The translations under genes and the position numbers were made by a program. This document shows positions 5 through 42,207 of a stretch of DNA of 64,000 bases, piece by piece. How positions within the stretch are numbered: position 1 is the first letter of the stretch; each line of letters begins with the position of its first letter. The stretch is from a virus (taxonomy: Duplodnaviria > Heunggongvirae > Uroviricota > Caudoviricetes > Crassvirales), in IMG/VR virus record IMGVR_UViG_3300008267_000092, positions 24,022 to 88,021 of that record; one strand, written 5' to 3'. The notes under the pieces were generated by a model. That model did no database searches. It was given only the letters and a program-made list of their open reading frames with translations, and was not told the origin of the DNA.

Positions 5-3000
5 ATGTTTACAGGAGATGTTGCATTTTATAAGAATATGATTGATTATAAAAAACGTGTACCTGCAACATATACGGATGGATTACAGTTGCGATTGAAA
101 AAAGGTGAAGAACATTTTACAGTAGCTACAATTGATAAGGTAGAAATAGGTTCACCATACCATAAGGAATTAGTTGAAATGTTAGGTGTTGAAGGTGCTA
201 AACCATATAGTGAAGGTAAGATAAATTCTGCGGATGCTCAAGCTTGGATAACACCTAAAAGGTGGAAGTTTTTAGTTGAACGTTTAGGTAAATGGACTTC
301 GGATCACGACTCATTGTACACTAAAATGATGTCTGATGGTGATCAGTCTTATACAGCTAAAGAATTAAAGATTGCAGCGCAACCTTTAAAAGGTGTATAT
401 TTTTATATGAACGGTAAAACACCAACGTATCTTAAATACTCACAAGCTGTATTGACACCTAGTATGTTAAAAAACTCACCTGGTTTACGATCTATTTATA
501 GTCAAATGGATAAACAAGGTGTTGACGAATTAATTACATTAGATGGCTTTAAAACAGGTTCTCCAAGACCTACAAGAGTACATAATGTTGACGGTACAGT
601 AAAATCTGAAATATCATTTAATACTGAACAGTTATCAAACTATGGTTGGAAATTACAACAAGATTTACCTGTTAAAACATTTAAACAAACTGACGTAGGT
701 TCTCAAATTCAAAAAAATATTTTTGCAGGTTTAATTCACAATTTAGAATTAGCAGGATTTAATTTAGATGGTTCTGAAACAAACGGACAAACAATCTCAG
801 ATAATATTGTAAATATTGTTTCAGGTTTAGTAGATAAAGGTATTTTAGACATTAAAGAGGAATTTGATGTATTTAGAAACGGTGAAATTAAAAACATTAA
901 GGGTTTTTATAAAGCACTTGTTCGTGAGTTGGAAAAAAGAGGTGGTTCTAAGAATGTTATAGACGCTTTAAATAAACAAACTGCATTATATGGTATGCCA
1001 CAATCAATGGATAAGATTGTTAGTGTATTTTCATCTATAATGAATGATCGTTTAATTAAAATTAAAACAAACGGTGGTGCATTTATACAAATGTCTAACT
1101 TTGGTATATCTAAAGAAGAAGGTGATAGTAAAGGTATTTTATGGAACCCTGATATTGAAAATGGTAGTACAACTTATGAACCACGTATTTATACTAAAGA
1201 AAATGGTCGTAAAAGTATAAAACCTGCAGGTATATTAATTTCAGGTTCATTTATTGCAAAATATATTCCTGATTATAAAAAATATAGTGCTGAAGAACTT
1301 TTTAAAGGTAAAGATGGTAATCCACCTATTATTGATAAAAAAATATTAGAAAATTTAGTTGGTTATAGAATTCCTAATCAAGGACTGTCATCAAATGATG
1401 CTTTAGAAATTATAGGTATTTTACCTGAAGAAAACGGTGATACTATTGTAGCATATACAGGTATTACAACTAAGACAGGGTCGGATTTTGATATTGATAA
1501 GATGTACTTAATGATGCCTAATTATTCTTTAGAGGATGATAGATTGGTATATACTACATACGATTCAACGTTATCAAATAAAAAACAATCTAAAGAAGCA
1601 TTACAAAATAGGTTAATTGAACTATATAAATCAGTTTTAACACATCCAAAAGTTATTAAAGATGTAATGACACCTTTAGATAATGATGTCTTAAAAGACG
1701 ATATCGTAGACTTAATACCTTCAGAGTCTTCAGGAACAATGTTTCATTTTGACGCATTTAATGATATTAAATTACGATATGAGTTTATTAATGGTAAAGC
1801 AGGTGTTGGTCAAGAAGCTAATGCTGTAGTTGATGTTAATAGACCTGGTAATTTAAGTATTAATAAATATAATATTGGATGGGGTCATGTTAATGAAAAA
1901 GGTGATACTAAATTAGATAACGAGTATTCTGAAGCATTATCTGAACAAGATTTAAATTATTATAAAGATGCACTTGTTGATATAAAAATAAAAGAGCTTG
2001 AAAAGAAACAGATGCATGTTAATAACGATGTTAGAGAAAAGATAAAAAAAGAGGTTTCTAACTATGTTAATAACGCAGTTAAAAAAATAAAAGTTGGTGA
2101 TTCATTAACTGCGATTCTTAATGCATTTGTGGATATTGCAAAAGATCCTTATATTACAAGAGGTAACTGGACAACATCTACTACAAATACAGGTAACTTA
2201 CTTATACGTGCAGGTGTTCACCCTTTATATGTTACGTCATTTATGGCACAACCTATAATTAAAGAATATATTGAGTATCAAGCAAGTAAAGAATCTATTA
2301 TTACAAAGAATACAGGTGATATTAAAAATAAATTTAAGAAGAATTTAGCAGTAAAGAATCTTGAAAAATTAAACGATAAACATCCTGAGTTATTGAAACC
2401 TTTAGAATTGATTTATCAAAAATTTGCTAAGTCTAATGGTGCTATAAATCCTTTTACAGCATCAAACGCGGCAGAAAGACTTCAAAAAATGTTAGGTAAA
2501 AAAAATACACTATCTGGTGAAGAATTAGAAAATGTATTGATAACATTAAAACGTGAACATGATAGAGTATTTAATGCTGAAAAATTAAATATTACAGATA
2601 GAAAAACTTATAATTTACAACATTATCGTGAACAAATAAAGAATGAGGCTTCTGCAGATTTTCAAATTGCGATATTAGATAAGTTTTACGAATTACAGAC
2701 CGTTAGTAAAGTAGTTAAAGAAAATGTAGATATTTCTAAATTAGATACTAATGGTATGGGTAAAAATGTTAATTCATTATTTAGCACCTTTAATTTAATT
2801 AAACACGTTTTAGATAAGGAGAAAACAGATAGAGTTGGTGTACTTAACGGTTTGGAATCTAAATTTGAAAATACAACTTTAGCTGTATATCATAAAGGAT
2901 TAAAAGAAATTTTAAGAATTGTTCAAGCAAATCCTTTATTATTTCCTCAAGCGGATAATAAAGTTCAAACAATGTTTAATGAGATATCTAATGACCTATA

Positions 3001-6000
3001 TGACACACCTGCAATTGATAAAGATTTAGTAAATGATTTAGAAAAAGAATATTATACTTATGTAATGTCTAATTTTACACCATTTAATTTAAGTTCTGTT
3101 GAAATAAGAAACTTATTAAGTGAATTACCTGTTGAATTTGAAAATTTTAAAAAGGCAAATAAAGGTAAATATGTGGTTATAGATGAGCTTCTAAATAAAT
3201 TTGATAAAAATTTTAAGTTAATAACTTTAAATAACAGAAAAAAATCAAGTTCTTTTGAAGAAAAGTTTACAGATTCTTGGAGAGATTTAATTACAGATCA
3301 TCCTGAATTTGCAGAAAATTTAATTAAATATTCATTTTTAACTTCAGGTTTTCAAATGAATACTAATCAGTTTTTTACATATATTCCCCATGAGTATTTA
3401 TTACAAAATAACATAAATCAATTTATTGTTAATTTTTCTAGACAGGATCAATTCGATTTCCTTGATAAATTTTACTTAAATAACACTGATAATTATAAAT
3501 ATGTACCTAAAGTATTTGATTCTGAAATTCAATCTGAAGATTTAACATCAGGTTTCACTTTAAAACAATCTGATAAAAGTGAAACAGGTAAAGCTCGTTA
3601 TTACGTATCGAGAGATGCTGGTGGAGGTATTTATAAACTAGAAGGGTATGATTCATTTAATAGAGCAATTTATACAAGAATTAAAGCATTAGGTCAAAAA
3701 CGTAAAGGTAGTACAATTGTTGAATATGGTGATCAATTTACAAAATCAAATCTTGAAACTAGTCCTGAATATATCACAAGATTAAAAAATTCAGTAGTTA
3801 CTGAACGTGATAAATATAATCCTAATTTTACTTTAGATAAAATTGCAGATAGAGAAGAAGATGATTCAACTAACGGATTAACTATAGAAGAACCTACTCA
3901 ACCATCTACTAGTATTTCTGAGTTTGATATAGCTGATAAATTATCACCTATAGAACAAAACTTTAAAGATGGTACAGGTGGTAGAAAAATGCAACCACAG
4001 TTTAAAGGTAAATCTACTATGGATCTTATTATATCAGGAGATAGAACTAGAACTACTAGAGCTAAAACTGATATACAAAGAATGACTAAAGATTATGGTT
4101 TATCTAAAATATCAGATCTTGTTGGTAAAGTTATAAGAATGACTGATAATACAGGAAGACAAGTATATACTATGATTACTAATGTAGTTCCATTTACACA
4201 AGAATATCAAGATGCTACGTGGCAAAATGAAGGTTGGGAAAAGTCTGTAACAGATAAACATGTAAATGATTATCCTTATGCAATTGAATTTAAAGTTGTA
4301 GATAAACCTACTCAACCATCTACTACTCAGGTAGAATCAGTTACGACTGAATTAACTCCAGGACAATATGTTAAATATAATGGTGAAACATACATTATTG
4401 TAAAACAGAATGCAAATGGAACATTTCAGATTTTAAATCCTACTTTAGAAGGTCCTTTATCTAAAATATCAGTTTCAAAAGAAAAACTTCAAGCAATCGG
4501 TAAAGAGGCAAAATTGGTTACCTATAAAGGTGTAGAATATTTAGTTACACCTAATAATACAATTATATCTACAGTTACCAATAAGGCGATGAATTGGACT
4601 GAAAATGATGGTAATAGACGTGCTATTTTAGAATTAGCTAATAACAATATCAAATCGTCCGATAAAATTGAAATTCCAACTGTTGAAAAAACTGTAGTTA
4701 GTAAACTTCAAGAAGTTACGATTTTTAAACCTGCAAATAAAGAGCAAGAGGTTGCAATTGAAGCTATTAAGGATTTTATTGAAAATGGTAATCCTAAAGA
4801 GATATTTACTTTAGAAGGTAAAGCTGGTACTGGTAAAACAACGTTAGTTCAAGAGGCATTAGCAGATTCTGTAGAAAAAGGTAAAAATATTCACATTGCG
4901 GCATTGTCACATAAAGCAAAATTAGTTTTAGCTCAAAAATTAGAACAAAGATTTCCTAAAAAAATAAGTAGTAGTAGTATTGCTGGTTTATTAGGAATGA
5001 AAATGAATGAGGAAACTGGTGAGTTTGAAACAGGATTTAGTGAGTTTGAAAGACCTGTAGAATCTGCAGATATTATTGTTATCGATGAAGCATCAATGGT
5101 AAATGAAGAAGCATTATCTTTAATTATGAGTGAAAAAAGATATGGTACTAAAGTTATATTTCTAGGTGATAGAGGTCAATTACCTCCTATTAGAAAATTA
5201 TCGAGTGATGAAATAAGTACAGTATTTGAATCTTCAAACAAAGCAAGTTTAGTTGAACGTGTAAGACAAGGTGAAGAATCTCCAATATTACCATTTGCTG
5301 ATTATTTTTGGGATAATTCAGAATCTGATAAACCTAAAGCGAATCCTATTCCTGAAGGTCAAATAAAAGATTCTTTAACAAGTAAAGGTAATTTAGTATT
5401 TGTAAATAATTTATTTGATGTGTTTGAGGATGTTGTAAGTAGTTTTAAACAGGGTATAGATTCTGGAAACTTCAACATAATTAAAATTGTAACATATAAA
5501 AATGCTACTAGGCAAAATTATAATAAGCAAATTAGAAAATCAATATTTGGAGAAGATGTACCTCAATTTGTGGTAAAAGATCAAATTATGTTTCAAAATA
5601 ATTACATGTCACAAGGTGTTGAATTTTCTAACAGTGATGAATTTTCAATTGAAGCCGTAATAACTTCTGAAAAAAATGGATATAAGGTATTCGATATAGG
5701 TGTTAAAGTAGATCCTACTAAAGATATAATTACTTATTTTTCAGTATTAGCTGAAGAAGATAAGTCTAAATTTAACGAAGAAGTGGCTAGATTATTTGAA
5801 GTGGCTAAAAAAATGGCACCTGGACAACTTAGGAAAATGGCATATAAAAGTGCATGGGCACTTAAAGCTACATTTGCGGAAATAGATTACTCTTATGCAA
5901 TAACATCACATAAATCACAAGGTTCAACATACGATAATGTTATTGTTGATTTAAAAGATATTTATTCTGTAGGTGCAACCACAAACGCATCTAAATCTCG

Positions 6001-23888: not shown

Positions 23889-24686
23889 TTAATTTGTTAA
23901 AATGTAACTATCTTTTTCAATTTGTCTAAGTAGTAGTTTTGCTAGTTTTCTATCATTGTTATCAATTGCTTCCACTACTTGAGCTGAATATTTATCAATA
24001 TAGTGGGTATGCTTACCGTCTAATACGTGTTCTACAGCTTTTATTGTTTGATCAAATACCCATTTAATCAATGTGTTGTCGTGTATCCAAAAATTAGATA
24101 ATTGACGACATTCTAATCCAAAAAGTTTAGGTCTAAAAGAACCAGCTTTACCATATAGTTCTCTTCTTCGTTCATCGTTATCCAATAATAATGAAGGTAA
24201 TGTTACAAAAATATCAAACATTTTTACAATATTGACAGTTTTTTCAAATTCAGGATCTGGATAACCTATATGAATATGTCCGCCCACACATCTCAAATTA
24301 GTATTTGTATCAGGTTTAGGGTTTATCATTTCCGTATATACGTTGTAATCAGGTTCACAACCAAATAATTGTGCTTGTTCAGATTGCAAATGTATAGGGT
24401 TTATTTCATCTGAAGCTTTTGTAGATAGTTCAAATCCGTGTGAATTTGCAATGACTTCAAGATATTCTTTAACATAATTAATGTTTTCAATATATTCATC
24501 TGCAGTACTACAAGGAGGAATGTTAAATTCAAATGCAATATTATCGGTTTGAATGAAATGACCCTTATCTGTAATTGGATAAGGATCATCTTTAGTTCCA
24601 GGAATTAATCCTACTGCAGATACAATTTCAGTATCATTTTCAATAAATACTTCAGGGTCACTACCTAATTTAATGTCGTATTTCAT
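23889..24686 (-). CDS. GCS2-like carboxylate-amine ligase (amidoligase)
   Basis: KLGSDPEVFIE N-terminal motif and VGGHIHIGYP (GxHxH) typical of glutamate-cysteine-ligase family 2 / phage amidoligases. Confidence 0.5.
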   Translation of the reverse strand: MKYDIKLGSDPEVFIENDTEIVSAVGLIPGTKDDPYPITDKGHFIQTDNIAFEFNIPPCSTADEYIENINYVKEYLEVIANSHGFELSTKASDEINPIHLQSEQAQLFGCEPDYNVYTEMINPKPDTNTNLRCVGGHIHIGYPDPEFEKTVNIVKMFDIFVTLPSLLLDNDERRRELYGKAGSFRPKLFGLECRQLSNFWIHDNTLIKWVFDQTIKAVEHVLDGKHTHYIDKYSAQVVEAIDNNDRKLAKLLLRQIEKDSYILTN

Positions 24687-30182: not shown

Positions 30183-30467
30183 TTACATCATTTTCTCAAT
30201 TATAGCTTCTATTCTGCCTTTCATTCCGTGACCTGTAACTTTAAGTACTTCGTGAACTTTCCAAAGTTCGTCTATAATTTCGTTTCTAATTTTATTAATT
30301 TCATGCAAATTTTCAGTTGCTAATGCTTCTGAAAGGTTCTCAATTTTTTTAGTTTCTGTTTTCATATTAGTTTTTGTTTCGTGAATTTCTCCGTTTTTTA
30401 TGTAGTACTTAGGAATATTGTGAGTTGGTATCAATCTTCCTTGCCATTTTTTAGGGAATATACACAT
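30183..30467 (-). CDS. hypothetical protein
   Basis: 94 aa ORF. Confidence 0.4.
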   Translation of the reverse strand: MCIFPKKWQGRLIPTHNIPKYYIKNGEIHETKTNMKTETKKIENLSEALATENLHEINKIRNEIIDELWKVHEVLKVTGHGMKGRIEAIIEKMM

Positions 30468-30638
30468 ATTAAAAGTATTTAGTTTTGTGCATTGATTTGT
30501 AGGCTACTTCGTTATCGTAAATGCTGCTATATCTATTTTACCTGTATTACCAAGTTCATATTCTTTTAAAAATTCTTCTGCTGTTGGTATTGTGTTTAAA
30601 TTTTCCATAACTTCTATTTGTTTTAAATTAATATTTAG

Positions 30639-30713
30639 TGGTCAGAATGGGACTCGAACCCATGTAACAGTCTTCCATGCAGTGTCTGTACCTTGCCACT
30701 CAGTCACCTGACC
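30639..30713 (-). tRNA. tRNA-like gene (75 nt), canonical acceptor stem and T-arm but non-canonical D/anticodon arms; possible tRNA-Pro(UGG)-derived pseudogene
   Basis: reverse complement GGTCAGG...ATGGGTTCGAGTCCCATTCTGACCA: 7-bp acceptor helix, perfect T-stem with TTCGAGT loop; anticodon stem does not pair cleanly in my manual fold. Confidence 0.4.
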
Positions 30714-31075
30714 ATTTTCTTCATGTGAGGACACTTATTTATTAGCACCTTTCTCTTATTAAAATACCTTGTTTACTGCTCAGTGTGGTATCAACTGTAA
30801 TAACTAATAAGAGTTAAGGTCACGTAGTTAATTCGCAGAAAGTTTCTAATGTTTCAGTTCTACCTTATAACTACTTGCTGAGACTCATTTGTGTTGTGTG
30901 GAACCATTCATTATCCACCTTAACTCGCATATTCCTTTCTCAAGGGAACAACACATCTAGGATTTCTCCATTACTACCAGAATTGACTTGTTACAGCCTA
31001 TCTTCATAATACCCTGTAATTCAGGATTAGTATCTTTATGTAAATTTAAAAGTTTTGCTTTTATTAAACTACCGA

Positions 31076-31102
31076 CCCACTAAGTAGACCCACTAAGTAG
31101 AC
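31076..31102. repeat. tandem direct repeat 2x CCCACTAAGTAGAC
   Basis: exact 13-14 nt unit repeated head-to-tail, followed by hairpin + T7 at 31106-31129. Confidence 0.6.
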
Positions 31103-31105
31103 CAG

Positions 31106-31129
31106 GTGAGATTAGAACTCACTTTTTTT
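31106..31129 (+). terminator. short hairpin GTGAG-attagaa-CTCAC followed by TTTTTTT
   Basis: 5-bp stem + T-run. Confidence 0.35.
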
Positions 31130-31204
31130 AAATTTACAAACCATCAATGTTTAGGGTATATTTTAACTATTTTACATTTTTTACAAACGGTAAAGTACTC
31201 CCAT

Positions 31205-31360
31205 TTACTTTTTATTTTTAAATATTAATTTTGCTGAGATATACATCCCAAATATAAAAATTCCTATTCCTAACCATGCGTCGATATGGTTAAAACTCCA
31301 GATTGACGTAAATATCAAAAATACTGTTGTTAATGTAATTTTTGTAAATTTATTTACCAT
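31205..31360 (-). CDS. small membrane protein (51 aa), paralog of 32414-32566
   Basis: MVNKFTKITLTTVFLIFTSIWSFNHIDAWLGIGIFIFGMYISAKLIFKNKK; shares IW(S/I)FNH(I/V)DAW(L/V)GIG..(F/V)..G.YISAKL core with the second copy; unlisted (<60 aa). Confidence 0.55.
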   Translation of the reverse strand: MVNKFTKITLTTVFLIFTSIWSFNHIDAWLGIGIFIFGMYISAKLIFKNKK

Positions 31361-31378
31361 AATTTATTTATTATTAAA

Positions 31379-31584
31379 AACCAACACATCCATCAAGATT
31401 GGGATAAGTTAGAAGTTTTACGTTCAATATTAGTAGGAATTATTGAGCACTGCTCCACCATACTTTTCACTTATCTTACTCAATAAACATAACACTTCTT
31501 GTAGCGTTAGTGATAGTGAGCTACAGCATTTTATCTCACAGAGCTGTTATCACTTTGTCTACCTTTCTATGTGTTGGTTTATTT
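31379..31584 (-). repeat. conserved ~200-bp intergenic element, copy 1, bounded by 11-bp inverted repeat AACCAACACAT / ATGTGTTGGTT
   Basis: blocks CCAACACATCCATCAAGATTGGGATA, AACATAACACTTCTTG, TCTATGTGTTGGTTTATTTT shared with copy 2. Confidence 0.6.
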
Positions 31585-31585
31585 T

Positions 31586-32395
31586 TTATCTTACTGTCTT
31601 AACAAATGGTAAACCACTACCACCAGCATAGGTTGATGGTAAAACACCATTCCAACGGTTAATTGTTTTTTCTTGTAACACTTCTGGTGTTAAACCTCTA
31701 GAACGAATAATAGATTGTTCTGTTTTTAAAATTTCCAATTCATTCTTTTTCTTTTGTTCTGAAATTAATTGGTCCAATACTGAAATATTTGTATTTACTT
31801 CATTACGATTATCAATTTTTTCTTTAACTTTCTTAGAGAAATCTAAATTTAAACTGAAACTGATTAATTCTAAACCAGATTTTTCAAATTCTTTTTTAAC
31901 AATATCTTGTACATATTGTTCAAATTTTAACGAACCTCCATTCGCCATTAATTGTTCTGTTGTGTAACTTCTAGAAGCCTCTTTAATTACATCATAAATT
32001 CTTGGTTCTAGTACGTTATCTTGCAAAGCGGACATAAAATTATCTCCAGAACCTAATCTAGAATTTTGAAATACAACGTCTACTACCCTAGTTTCAATAA
32101 CTTTAAACGAATATAAAGGTTTTGATGTAAATGCTGTATTATCAGCAGCCTTGATATTTAAAATTCGTTCAGTTCCTTCATCAGTTGTATACTGTCCTCT
32201 CTGTTCCCACGCTGGTACTTGGAATAATTCAGTTCCAGGAGCAATCGTAACAACCTTACCTTGTTGTTTAGAATAATCTGATTTACCATTCTTACCATAA
32301 TTTTCCATCAACACCCCATAATAATTAGGGGCAACCCTTGTTGTACATGAAGTTAACAACACAAAAACCAACATAACACTTAATAATTTTTTCAT
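31586..32395 (-). CDS. SPFH/band-7-like lipoprotein
   Basis: lipoprotein signal MKKLLSVMLVFVLLTSC; central SPFH-like region, C-terminal coiled coil. Confidence 0.4.
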   Translation of the reverse strand: MKKLLSVMLVFVLLTSCTTRVAPNYYGVLMENYGKNGKSDYSKQQGKVVTIAPGTELFQVPAWEQRGQYTTDEGTERILNIKAADNTAFTSKPLYSFKVIETRVVDVVFQNSRLGSGDNFMSALQDNVLEPRIYDVIKEASRSYTTEQLMANGGSLKFEQYVQDIVKKEFEKSGLELISFSLNLDFSKKVKEKIDNRNEVNTNISVLDQLISEQKKKNELEILKTEQSIIRSRGLTPEVLQEKTINRWNGVLPSTYAGGSGLPFVKTVR

Positions 32396-32413
32396 TTTTT
32401 TTTCATTTTTTTT

Positions 32414-32566
32414 TTATTTTAATTTTTTTATTAATAATTTTGCTGAGATATATAAACCTAACACAAAAACACCTATCCCAACCCAAGCGTCAACGTGATT
32501 AAAAATCCAAACAGTTCCGTAAAGGTATAAAAACGATACAATTACAACTTTAAATACTTTTTCCAT
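32414..32566 (-). CDS. small membrane protein (~50 aa), paralog of 31205-31360 (ORF track start at 32614 likely too far upstream)
   Basis: MEKVFKVVIVSFLYLYGTVWIFNHVDAWVGIGVFVLGLYISAKLLIKKLK. Confidence 0.55.
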   Translation of the reverse strand: MEKVFKVVIVSFLYLYGTVWIFNHVDAWVGIGVFVLGLYISAKLLIKKLK

Positions 32567-32589
32567 TTTTTTATTATAATTAATAATTA

Positions 32590-32812
32590 ATAAAATAAAT
32601 AACACATCCATCAAGATTGGGATACAGCATTTAAGTTAGAGTTTTAAGAAGGATATTACTCCTTACACCATTGCTTTTATCATACTCAACAAAACATAAC
32701 ACTTCTTGATAGTGTTTATAATACGCTAAAATGGATCTTGATACTTGATTCGCCCTTTAGCTTCGAGTATCCTATATTATATTGTCTGTTTTTCTATGTG
32801 TTGGTTTATTTT
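32590..32812 (-). repeat. conserved ~200-bp intergenic element, copy 2
   Basis: same three sequence blocks as copy 1 in the same order, upstream of the paralogous small membrane protein gene. Confidence 0.6.
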
Positions 32813-32820
32813 AATTTATT

Positions 32821-33396
32821 CTACCATGCTGAAGCTTCAGATGATGTACTAGAGGTTGATTGTGTAGGTGCATCAGCAACTAATCTTTCCATCATATCTC
32901 CATTTTTACGATTTAATTTTGATGGTGAAGTCTCTGCAGATTCTACAAAATCAAAATATCTTAATCCGATATATTGAGATGGTTTTTGAATAGTACCATA
33001 GGTAACAAATACATTTAAAGATTTACCTTCTGAATTATCTTTAATAAGCTTAAATAAGCTATCTAAAGCTTCTTTAGAAGTAGACACTTCAGGAAATACA
33101 AAATCTTTAGCAACTACAGCTTTAGCTGCAGATAATACTCTACCTACTGTCCAACGTTCAAGGTCTGCATTTCTTTTAGCGTCATACATTTCATTATTTT
33201 TATGATAGTAAAAACCTTGATTTACAAGACCACCATTTACATCTTTAAAAATAAGTTTGTAATCAGGTACATTATCTGCGTCACCTGGTTGTTTTTTCTC
33301 AACCGACATTGTTACATTCTCTACTTTACCTGCTACACCATTGTTGAAAATTACAACACTACTTTCGAAACTTGAATCATTTAAATTGAAACTCAT
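32821..33396 (-). CDS. hypothetical protein, possibly ssDNA-binding protein
   Basis: 191 aa, Ser/Thr/acidic C-terminal tail, position next to recombination ATPase; weak. Confidence 0.3.
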   Translation of the reverse strand: MSFNLNDSSFESSVVIFNNGVAGKVENVTMSVEKKQPGDADNVPDYKLIFKDVNGGLVNQGFYYHKNNEMYDAKRNADLERWTVGRVLSAAKAVVAKDFVFPEVSTSKEALDSLFKLIKDNSEGKSLNVFVTYGTIQKPSQYIGLRYFDFVESAETSPSKLNRKNGDMMERLVADAPTQSTSSTSSEASAW

Positions 33397-33564
33397 ATTA
33401 ATTATTATTTATTGATTATTAAAATTATTTTTTGTTAAAAACTGTTTCTATTTTTAGAAAATACCCTTCTTGGAAACAGTCAAAGCAAGACGCCAACCTA
33501 CGATTTGGAGATTTAGTGGCACTAAGTTGTGACTTATCTGTCTTCGATCCTTTGTACTTCAGGC

Positions 33565-34335
33565 TTATTCTTTTACAAAAATCTTATCCCAATGAGATGT
33601 GAATTTACCAGTTTCATCAGATTCTAGTACCACGATTTCTCTATTTTTAAGATGCTCAGGTCGAGCACCTACAGTTAAAGATTCTGCAGGTTTAAAGTTG
33701 GCAATTGTTTTATTATCTTTTCTATAAAGATATGCAATGGCATCAGATTGTGAACATACAATAGATGACAGTTTACCCGCTAAATCTAAACCTCTTGCTG
33801 TCATTTCTTTACCTTCATGCTCAATGATTTTATCTTTAGTATGTCCTGCAATAATCAATGTATCACATAATTGTTCTAATTCATTAAGAATGATTAAAAC
33901 TGCCTCCCTGAGGGGTCCGTAGCCAGCGCCATTTGCAAGCGTTCTAACATCTGTACCTTTGAAGTTTTTACCCATTGGTGTATCTAAATACAGTTTTAAT
34001 GCTAAATCTGTAGCATAGTTTTCTTCTAATGCTGAAATAGTATCAATAGTGATGTATTTATATGTGTGACTTTTATTTGATGTGTTAGATTCTTTTAATT
34101 TGTCAATAACCATCTTTAAAGCTGCAATAGGTTTTACATTTTCTTTACGAGCAATGTCTAACACATTGATTTTTAAACCTGATACAAACCCTGAACCATC
34201 TTCTAAATCTAAAATTAGATTATTTTCAAGACGGCTCAAACTTTCTGTTTTACCACATTTAGGTTGTGAAAATAATATTAACCTTTTAGGGTTAACTCTT
34301 GTAGGTTTTGTAACCTTACTTGGTAATTCTACCAT
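33565..34335 (-). CDS. RecA-superfamily P-loop ATPase (Sak4/AAA_24-like recombination protein?)
   Basis: N-terminal Walker A SQPKCGKTE, Walker B-like LIIAGH; size ~250 aa. Confidence 0.4.
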   Translation of the reverse strand: MVELPSKVTKPTRVNPKRLILFSQPKCGKTESLSRLENNLILDLEDGSGFVSGLKINVLDIARKENVKPIAALKMVIDKLKESNTSNKSHTYKYITIDTISALEENYATDLALKLYLDTPMGKNFKGTDVRTLANGAGYGPLREAVLIILNELEQLCDTLIIAGHTKDKIIEHEGKEMTARGLDLAGKLSSIVCSQSDAIAYLYRKDNKTIANFKPAESLTVGARPEHLKNREIVVLESDETGKFTSHWDKIFVKE

Positions 34336-41730: not shown

Positions 41731-41788
41731 CGTCTCCAAACATCATAGGATATACCCTGAGTTTGGAGACGGTGGGATTCGAACCCAC
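41731..41788 (-). pseudogene. tRNA 3'-half remnant (T-arm + 3' acceptor strand) fused to an 11-bp hairpin in the 5' leader of the HNH gene
   Basis: reverse complement GTGGGTTCGAATCCCAC-CGTCTCCA...; CGTCTCCAAAC pairs with downstream GTTTGGAGACG; no D/anticodon arm upstream. Confidence 0.5.
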
Positions 41789-42207
41789 GTCGATCAATGC
41801 GTTTGTTATATAATTTTATACAGCTTTTTGTAGTATTTAATCTTTAATGTCCCTTAAACACTACTAAATGTGGACAGCTATGGCAATGTTATACTCTAGC
41901 CAGTGTTGAGTTTGATTTGGGATTAGCGCACACGCGAATTCTAATTTACCAAATCATTTTAAACTATGCTGCCATTAATACTTCTTCTTTAGAAGAGTTA
42001 ATCAATGAAAAAACTTTAGCCATATTGGCTTTTGCTTGATTTTTGCCGTTTAAAATATTCACCTTAGTTTACAGTTATCTCTCTGGCTGAATTATATAAT
42101 TACTGACACAACCTCAAAGCCAGTCGTCCCCTTATTAATTGTTTAAAGTACAATCATAAACTTATTATTAGAAGGTGACACTTAATGTAATCACCTTCTA
42201 TAATTTA

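Follow-up and report, generated by a model that had tools for sequence, protein, structure and literature searches.

The stretch of DNA analysed here, a 64,000-nt window (positions 24,022 to 88,021) of the IMG/VR virus record IMGVR_UViG_3300008267_000092, belongs to a crAss-like phage. The major capsid proteins of this phage and of Cellulophaga phage phi14:2 share 63% identity, and the terminase (TerL), portal, and capsid genes of the former lie at 52.9–60.3 kb of the window. Across 29.5–35.3 kb every gene is carried on the minus strand, and in this region two non-coding elements of about 200 nt (e1 and e2), each accompanied by the gene for a small membrane protein, flank the gene for an SPFH lipoprotein; this layout, which had been put forward in a preliminary description of the sequence, is confirmed on the minus strand (Table 1). 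The two elements are copies of a structured RNA with a conserved, compact, pseudoknotted fold.

Pairwise alignment of e1 (31379–31584) with e2 (32590–32812) gives three exactly identical blocks with diverged sequence between them (AAATAAACCAACACATAGAAA; CAAGAAGTGTTATGTTT..TTGAGTA.GATAA; TATCCCAATCTTGATGGATGTGTT), just as the preliminary description had reported. A conserved 24-mer and a conserved 21-mer each occur exactly twice in the 64-kb window when up to three mismatches are allowed, against a chance expectation of 0.00–0.02. The 11-bp inverted repeat already noticed in copy 1, AACCAACACAT/ATGTGTTGGTT, is found at 31379–31389 and 31570–31580; the corresponding repeat of copy 2 consists of 7 bp followed by a 2 × 2 mismatch and seven A-U pairs.

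The elements belong to a family that extends well beyond the window. The exact 24-mer of block C is present in 7 IMG/VR contigs, block B and two degenerate versions of it in 39, 42, and 44 IMG/VR loci, and a 19-mer core in 52 further metagenome contigs from a fresh-water series and from TARA ocean samples. All of these contigs, which range in length from 1 kb to 430 kb, carry the same three blocks in the same order, separated by two spacers that are highly variable in length and sequence. A total of 56 distinct complete elements, 132–278 nt long, were extracted, and a covariance model (CM R1) built on the conserved core of about 110 nt recovers 90 elements in 94 related loci (designated by L and a number below), never two in one locus; in the window itself the model recovers solely e1 and e2 (scores in Table 1), the next-best score being 12 bits. 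The preliminary description had proposed a search for the element in other crAss-like genomes; the three-block family is drawn from about 90 viral and metagenomic loci.

The carriers are contigs of uncultured freshwater and marine phages, some of them crAss-like, others mid-sized or jumbo-sized. A blastn search of 50,697 GenBank phage records with e1 and a typical member gave chance-level matches alone, and an exact 19-mer scan of 185,579 bacterial and archaeal species, one genome per species, gave a single match, in Serratia symbiotica, which is taken as chance (it fails the covariance model, and about four matches are expected by chance). Judged from these searches, the RNA family appears to be confined to uncultured, probably lytic, phages, and both the promoters described below and the phage relatives point to Bacteroidetes hosts.

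Folding of 27 full-length members with RNAalifold yields a closing stem (P1), P2, and the hairpins P3 and P5, P2 being a long-range helix with the consensus GACAAACA/UGUUUGUU; inspection of the 56 cores added P2a (GUAAU/AUUAC), the base of variable arm V1, and P4 (GAUAA/UUAUC), the base of variable arm V2. The order along the RNA is 5'-P1, AGAAA, P2, [P2a-V1], P3(L3), A, P2', GAGUA(U/A), [P4-V2], P5(L5), P1'-3', with P4', P5, and P1' contiguous and without spacers. In this fold, P1 is formed by the 5' and 3' ends and opens into a junction with P2, P4, and P5; P2 encloses a second junction that bears the P2a/V1 arm and hairpin P3, and P4 bears V2. The lengths of P2 (8 bp), P3 (6 bp), and P5 (3 bp) are constant, whereas those of V1 and V2 can differ by over 100 nt. 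Two junction strands, AGAAA and GAGUA, show no variation in any of the 56 members and are opposed at the foot of P2. The consensus of the sarcin-ricin/loop-E (bulged-G) motif has AGUA opposite GAA, and 5'-GAGUA-3' and 5'-AGAAA-3' hold AGUA/GAA in the correct antiparallel register; this likeness is a sequence-pattern match to a local three-dimensional motif found in many RNAs and denotes no family. The 7-nt loops of P3 and P5, L3 (A)UCAAGA and L5 AUCUUGA, are complementary in 56/56 members and form a kissing contact of 5–6 bp, in which the CAAGA/UCUUG core is invariant in the 56 sequences and the sixth pair is U-A in 28 and C-G in 3 (L025, L041, and L048) but never mismatched.

These helices are supported by compensatory change. 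In an alignment of the 56 cores (A4), which holds 43 pairs in seven helices, 95.5% of cells are paired, compared with 35–47% when the 3' partners are slid by 1–3 columns; both-sided changes occur at 20 pairs, and compensatory cells number 167 against 49 ± 6 in column shuffles, a value that none of 500 shuffles reaches. The unedited alignment of 27 sequences behaves in the same way (98.6% of cells paired against at most 46% in the slid controls; 0/500 shuffles). At each of three pairs of P1, 14–30 sequences carry compensatory changes, and a P1 position can show as many as four or five types of pair; in P2a and in P4, every one of the five pairs covaries, ten in total. G-U pairs, which would be C-A mismatches on the opposite strand, are frequent (40/56 at pair 16/67, for example), and because they are common the transcribed strand is fixed as the minus strand of the window. 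The preliminary description had offered three readings of the conserved element, namely a promoter-leader, a structured RNA, and a mobile unit like a miniature inverted-repeat transposable element (MITE); the structured RNA is the sole one of these to survive, since seven helices covary among the 56 homologues in a strand-specific way that tolerates G-U pairs.

Neither window copy has lost a helix or an invariant position. The P1 stem of e1 reaches 12 bp with its flanking AAA/UUU, and its P2 has a U-A in place of the usual C-G pair. The variable arms of e2 resemble those of L022, L045, and L048 and not those of e1, and the arms of e1 match nothing. Each RNA copy and each small protein has nearer homologues in other phages than its counterpart in the window; e1 and e2 are therefore not recent tandem duplicates, and the term duplicated module in the preliminary description is misleading; by sequence comparison they are best described as old paralogues without recent duplication. 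What is unusual about the window is that it carries an RNA copy at both positions together with an extra small gene.

Table 1. Features of the window around the two RNA elements, with the parts of each element (CM, covariance model; ORF, open reading frame; tmRNA, transfer-messenger RNA).
Feature	Position in window	Strand	Remarks
Sak4-like annealing protein	34335-33565	minus	PHROG 124, Pfam AAA_24
191-aa ORF	33396-32821	minus	directly 5' of e2 on that strand
Element 2 (e2), diverged copy	32812-32590; core 32599-32804	minus	precedes small protein 2 gene; CM R1 72.5 bits, E 4e-14, full length
e2 P1 3' strand AUGUGUUAU	32599-32607	minus	partner 32796-32804
e2 J1/2	32791-32795	minus	
e2 P2	32783-32790 with 32688-32696	minus	one extra U
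e2 V1	32717-32781	minus	
e2 P3/L3	32698-32716	minus	
e2 J2/4	32683-32687	minus	
e2 V2	32621-32681	minus	
e2 P5/L5	32608-32620	minus	
Small membrane protein 2, 50 aa, MEKVFKVV...	32414-32566	minus	ATG 32 nt past e2 P1 stem
SPFH/Band-7 lipoprotein, 269 aa	31586-32395	minus	Pfam PF01145; PHROG 200 'lipoprotein'
Element 1 (e1), structured RNA	31584-31379; CM core 31381-31577	minus	precedes small protein 1 gene; CM R1 84.2 bits, E 9e-17, full length 1-107; family-invariant columns all kept
e1 P1 5' strand CCAACACAU	31569-31577	minus	partner 31381-31389 (AUGUGUUGG), the inverted repeat of the preliminary description
e1 junction strand J1/2 AGAAA	31564-31568	minus	opposite GAGUA at 31477-31481; both invariant in 56/56 (A4 columns)
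e1 P2 5' strand GGUAGACA	31556-31563	minus	long-range partner 31482-31489 (UGUUUAUU)
e1 variable arm V1	31509-31554	minus	base helix P2a GUGAU/AUCAC
e1 hairpin P3 AACGCU/AGUGUU, loop L3 ACAAGA	31491-31508	minus	
e1 variable arm V2	31403-31475	minus	base helix P4 GAUAA/UUAUC
e1 hairpin P5 CCA/UGG, loop L5 AUCUUGA	31390-31402	minus	L5 complementary to L3
Small membrane protein 1, 51 aa	31205-31360	minus	ATG 20 nt past e1 P1 stem
RNA-2, second conserved non-coding RNA region	30730-31190	minus	directly 3' of small protein 1 gene; starts CCTAAACATTGATGGTTTG
tRNA-like gene	30639-30713	minus	Rfam tRNA model 40.5 bits, permissive scan alone
tmRNA	41763-42131	minus	Rfam 55.3 bits; long tag GKNQAKANMAKVFSLINSSKEEVLMAA

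The same observations bear on whether the elements are mobile DNA of the MITE type with terminal inverted repeats, or the remnant of a recent tandem duplication, which we regard as very improbable. Terminal inverted repeats of 7–12 bp, a size of 130–280 bp, a variable interior, and occurrence in many unrelated contexts are all features of such units, but the repeats form an RNA stem that takes G-U pairs on one strand alone and covaries pair by pair, and the five internal helices and the loop-loop contact covary as well. Moreover, no target-site duplication is visible in 56 flank pairs, 90 of the 94 loci hold one copy each, the 19-mer scan of the 185,579 species genomes gave no real copy, and e1 and e2 are not mutual nearest relatives.

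The genomic setting of the family in other phages is dominated by tRNA and tmRNA genes. Such a gene, called by ARAGORN, lies within 3 kb on the same strand for 27 of the 56 distinct elements and on the opposite strand for none; the element sits inside tRNA arrays of up to 20 genes or adjoins a tmRNA, always co-oriented, and 11 elements are no more than 20 nt from a tRNA. The element begins 3–4 nt past tRNA-Leu in L007/L008, L065, L076, and L089 (anticodon UAG where ARAGORN reported one), directly abuts tRNA-Leu(UAG) in L011, L027, and L038, and ends 4–16 nt ahead of a tRNA, most often tRNA-Cys, in L015, L026/L036, L041, L064, and L078 and also in L060 and L082. Promoters of the Bacteroidetes type have a −7 box with the consensus TAnnTTTG and an upstream TTG. 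In nine loci a TAnnTTTG box ends 7–13 nt (mostly 11 nt) 5' of P1, with TTG about 20 nt farther upstream; a run of at least four U directly follows P1 in 25 of the 56 members, and in L046 and L095 a second such promoter lies past the element and serves the next gene.

The features that follow the element are varied and include tRNA-Cys, tRNA-Thr, tmRNA, the motif of a second RNA (RNA-2, see below), the small membrane protein gene, an RNA-ligase-like ORF, and others. Clustering of the neighbouring genes found no recurrent neighbour protein family (maximum 6 of about 31 loci), the sole repeated protein neighbours being a GNAT acetyltransferase (6 loci) and a DUF559 endonuclease (3 loci), and no reverse transcriptase, nuclease, or RNA-binding partner recurs beside the element in the same clustering. 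Because the element adjoins tRNAs, has promoters and U-runs of its own, and lacks a recurrent protein neighbour, it is better understood as an independently expressed or tRNA-style processed RNA gene than as a gene-specific leader.

This setting bears directly on three other explanations, the least probable of which is that the element is a strong middle or late promoter region acting as a DNA-level signal. It is AT-rich, conserved, non-coding, and located upstream of genes, as such a region would be; however, no σ70-like or Bacteroidetes-type match exists within or before the window copies, the canonical promoter found upstream of the element in other phages would transcribe it, and compensatory changes of pairs would be meaningless for a promoter. 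The promoter-leader of the preliminary description is likewise not supported: in other phages the element comes after a tRNA or a promoter of its own, and the downstream feature may be a tRNA, a tmRNA, another RNA, or an unrelated ORF.

It also seems improbable that the element is a cis-acting leader, attenuator, or mRNA stabiliser of the small membrane protein genes, tuning their translation, read-through, or half-life. The arrangement in the window, L004, and L005, where the element ends 17–32 nt ahead of the start codon of the small gene, fits a leader, the U-run past P1 in 25/56 members could be a leaky terminator, and the small genes of the window have no separate promoter. In most loci, however, a tRNA (at 4–16 nt), a tmRNA, a second non-coding RNA, or an unrelated ORF lies downstream instead; in L046 and L095 a full promoter stands between the element and the small gene, the element of L014/L055 lies past the SPFH gene with no small gene after it, and LoVEphage has the pair of small protein and SPFH genes without the element.

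A decidedly improbable third explanation is that of a self-processing RNA, either a new self-cleaving ribozyme or the substrate of a dedicated RNase, which would punctuate polycistronic tRNA and mRNA transcripts and set where the adjoining RNAs end. In its favour, the element pairs a junction of some 10 invariant nucleotides with a pseudoknot-like tertiary contact, as is typical of catalytic cores, small ribozymes occur in phage tRNA regions, and the element is found flush with tRNA ends and between cistrons. No Rfam ribozyme family matches the element, however, and the variable, A/U-rich flanks contain no conserved nucleotide at a putative cleavage site outside P1; members that have their own promoter and U-run would have no need of self-processing.

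From the comparative sequence evidence we consider it probable that each element is instead the gene for a free-standing structured non-coding RNA of an undescribed family, which acts in its own right. The RNA would be freed as a stable molecule, from its own promoter and terminator in some members and, in those that adjoin tRNAs, through the action of RNase P together with processing of the 3' end; in the window phage it would be cut out of, or stay within, the transcript of the SPFH operon. The loops of P3 and P5 probably kiss within one molecule, because P2, P3, and P5 never change length, and the resulting rigid core would have P3 folded back along P2, which would bring L3 to L5. Such a molecule, a compact RNA or ribonucleoprotein, may act in trans in the infected cell; its functional surface would be made up of the invariant junction and the kissing-loop core, and the variable arms would be dispensable decoration. 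An unlikely extension of this proposal is that L3 and L5 pair between molecules and build a ring or cage, in the manner of pRNA or of the homo-oligomeric cages of ROOL and GOLLD, or that the loop-E-like junction docks on a host component of translation or RNA processing and reprograms it during infection of Bacteroidetes; if true, this would make the RNA a compact (about 150 nt) and tractable member of the phage tRNA-island RNAs, with a function that could be solved.

Several points weigh against an independent structured RNA gene. The homologues were fished with conserved block B, so that variation in block B is under-sampled, and A4 is an edited alignment from which the variable arm tips were cut out. 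P2 is the weakest helix: its changed 3' strand is uncompensated in four variants (L049, L050, L051, and L054), and most of the changes seen in it are purine transitions that face a U and so carry little information. Folded as single sequences, e1 gives a moderate signal (z = −2.9) and e2 an unremarkable one (z = −0.5), and covariation cannot separate an intramolecular from an intermolecular kissing loop (PMC12286853). In the window, no recognisable promoter or terminator is found around either copy, and the copies begin 8–17 nt past one stop codon and end 20–32 nt ahead of the next start codon, so that they might have a cis role in this particular operon. Finally, a covariance-model scan of the whole genome of phi14:2, the closest cultured relative, shows it to be without the RNA.

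The best analogy for this RNA is provided by phage tRNA-island RNAs such as ROOL and GOLLD, elaborate molecules whose purpose has, to our knowledge, been an open question since 2009. Like them, the RNA described here is phage-encoded and lies, co-oriented, in or beside tRNA and tmRNA islands; its loop-loop contact is conserved, and it has no recurrent neighbour protein or known protein partner and no known function. Unlike them, it is 3–5 times smaller (a core of about 110 nt and 132–278 nt in total, rather than more than 500 nt), and it matches neither Rfam model in sequence or structure; ROOL and GOLLD also occur in prophages and bacterial genomes, whereas the element was not found in the 185,579 species genomes. 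The folds of ROOL and GOLLD are held by kissing loops, some of which are intermolecular (PMC12286853). The present family, which is very sharply defined, adds a much smaller RNA to the tRNA-island niche, and its size makes structure determination, mutational analysis, and pull-downs practical, all of which are hard for RNAs of 600–800 nt. It also explains conserved 'non-coding gaps' in the genomes of crAss-like and other Bacteroidetes phages, which the covariance model can annotate.

Two other phage systems invite comparison. The pRNA of phage phi29 is likewise small; a helix between its 5' and 3' ends closes it, several helices meet in a junction, and its two mutually complementary loops pair between molecules to form a ring on the portal of terminal-protein phages. 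The element shares with it the complementary L3 and L5 loops, in 56/56 members, and a P1 that closes the ends; however, the crAss-like phage of the window has a large terminase and a portal of the ordinary kind, no Rfam pRNA match was obtained, and the constant lengths of P2, P3, and P5 suggest intramolecular pairing of the loops. The species 1 and 2 RNAs of T4 are stable RNAs that lie in a tRNA cluster, are freed by tRNA-type processing, and are of unknown function. Together with the non-coding RNAs of phi14:2, they resemble the element as phage RNA genes that are co-located and co-oriented with tRNA or tmRNA genes, but no homology of either to the element was detected.

Comparison with Rfam 15 at the gathering threshold gives nothing that overlaps the elements in the window, the matches there being tmRNA and tRNA alone. 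When positions 30400–33700 are scanned at E ≤ 10, the best scores overlapping the elements are 13–21 bits against cutoffs of 75–85, and six typical family members have no match at E ≤ 1. No description of the motif was found in Rfam or in the literature searched, a comparison that did not extend to an anonymous catalogue of 10,006 viral candidate RNAs. A number of specific identities were considered and rejected: tRNA (ARAGORN at default settings finds the tmRNA alone in the window, and the elements are not tRNA-like), RNase P RNA (a P4-like AGAAAG...UGUUUG is superficial, the CR-V sequences ACAGAA/CUUA are absent, and Rfam gives no match), 6S, signal recognition particle, or Y RNA (no Rfam match), a C/D-box or K-turn (partial matches at most), a tiny ORF from the AUG in block B (GAGUAA variants break its frame), pairing with the 790 loop or 3' end of 16S rRNA (matches of 7–9 nt, at chance level), CRISPR-repeat mimicry (no known resemblance to such repeats), and the templating non-coding RNA arrays of UG27 reverse transcriptases (the loci have no reverse transcriptase and no tandem array).

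Beyond the gene for small protein 1 lie about 480 nt of non-coding sequence and then the tRNA-like gene (30713–30639, minus strand). Most of this sequence is taken up by RNA-2, for which Rfam has no match, and blocks of which are 76–100% identical to sequences beside the element in at least 12 related loci; its start motif, TAAACATTGA, occurs no more than 300 nt 3' of the element in 15 of 56 loci. RNA-2 also matches positions 2905–3589 of phi14:2 (80% identity over about 100 nt at 3114–3214), an intergenic region of unknown function that is reported to show rightward transcription above that of most genes from the earliest time point (10.1101/2020.03.07.982082). The intergenic region between g005 and g006 of phi14:2 has been described as a second 'long non-coding RNA of unknown function' (10.1101/2020.03.07.982082); ARAGORN calls a tmRNA there (positions 4031–4500 of L044, NC_021806). 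The abundant early non-coding RNAs of phi14:2 correspond to the RNA-2 region and a tmRNA and not to the element, and because phi14:2 has no copy of the element, its published RNA-seq is uninformative on that subject. Within the RNA-2 region of the window, a perfect tandem direct repeat of CCCACTAAGTAGA (two units, 31076–31103 in plus-strand coordinates) is followed on the plus strand by a hairpin and T-run at 31104–31134.

The tRNA-like gene is missed by ARAGORN at default settings; under relaxed settings it is called tRNA-Ser(ACU), although the anticodon stem is then mismatched. The sequence of the loop region is CUGCAUG, and the gene may be unusual or degenerate. Tags similar to that of the window tmRNA (ANM.KVFSL...) are encoded in the related loci L014, L017, and L020. 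The RNA islands of other phages hold further non-coding features: a recurrent motif ...CTCCTTAAACAACGTGGGAACTGCGGTTCTCCCAATGTGGCC... lies directly 3' of the element in L011, L027, L035, and L038 (an Rfam scan of L011 matched nothing beside the element), another, ...CCCGCTACGTAGTCACGGCCGGATAACACGTACAGACAAGG...GGTCAGTCCGGG..., recurs in the islands of L013 and L025/L040, and positions 3075–3335 of L046, inside a tRNA cluster about 1.7 kb 3' of the element, score 57.3 bits with the permuted tmRNA model of Rfam, for which the cutoff is 47. In the window, a 168-nt non-coding gap (33397–33564) separates the Sak4-like gene from the 191-aa ORF and is weakly similar to two related loci (L013 and L037).

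The small membrane proteins of the window are 44% identical to each other and have FNHxDAWxGIGxFxxGxYISAKL in common; the preliminary description had given them a shared core beginning IWxFNHxDAW, of which the motif stands and the initial IW does not, since copy 1 has IW and copy 2 has VW. Neither protein has a Pfam match at E ≤ 0.01. Small protein 1, with its FNHIDAW motif, has two predicted hydrophobic helices, as does the wider family, which comprises 65 clusters of 43–95 aa (mostly 49–60), has an invariant FNH..AW, and is unnamed and without a Pfam domain. The L014 protein shares 55% identity with small protein 1, and the L004/L005 protein 57% with small protein 2. The small genes sit in the replication or early region, near Sak4-like and helicase genes, with no lysin gene adjoining; the preliminary description had suggested that their products may be holin- or antiholin-like, an idea that these observations favour in neither direction. 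The SPFH product matches PF01145 over residues 20–213 (40.5 bits against a cutoff of 23.6), and its signal peptide ends in LLTSC, which is lipobox-like.

A small gene lies directly 5' of the SPFH gene in six lineages, namely the window, L004, L005, L014/L055, L021/L030, and Bacteroides LoVEphage. The RNA precedes the small gene in L004, L005, and L046, lies past the SPFH gene in L014/L055, and is 6 kb away in L021, and a covariance-model scan shows that the LoVEphage loci keep the pair without the RNA. Because the synteny persists where the RNA is elsewhere or absent, the small protein and SPFH genes are a conserved pair in their own right and constitute a separate conserved phage module; the suggestion in the preliminary description that the small proteins are partners of the SPFH protein is supported by the same six lineages. 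We do not consider the SPFH gene and the RNA to be functionally tied, the RNA being a frequent neighbour in the lineage of the window phage. The pair recalls the SPFH-NfeD operon pairs of bacteria, in which a gene for an SPFH/Band-7 protein is likewise conserved beside one for a small membrane protein; unlike in those pairs, the small protein here has about 50 aa, no Pfam match, and no room for the OB-fold domain of NfeD, and its gene precedes the SPFH gene. In LoVEphage OY725593 (L001), positions 3712–3870 of the minus strand encode an unannotated 53-aa homologue (MKTVKKYW...FNHINAWLGI...) directly 5' of the annotated 'lipoprotein' (SPFH) gene, and a sequence like the T-arm of tRNA or tmRNA lies at 2340–2700, in a 535-nt gap downstream. 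In L055, the closest long relative (a 115.9-kb contig), genes for a bpMoxR-type AAA+ ATPase and a 471-aa protein (3283–5972) lie directly 5' of the small protein/SPFH pair.

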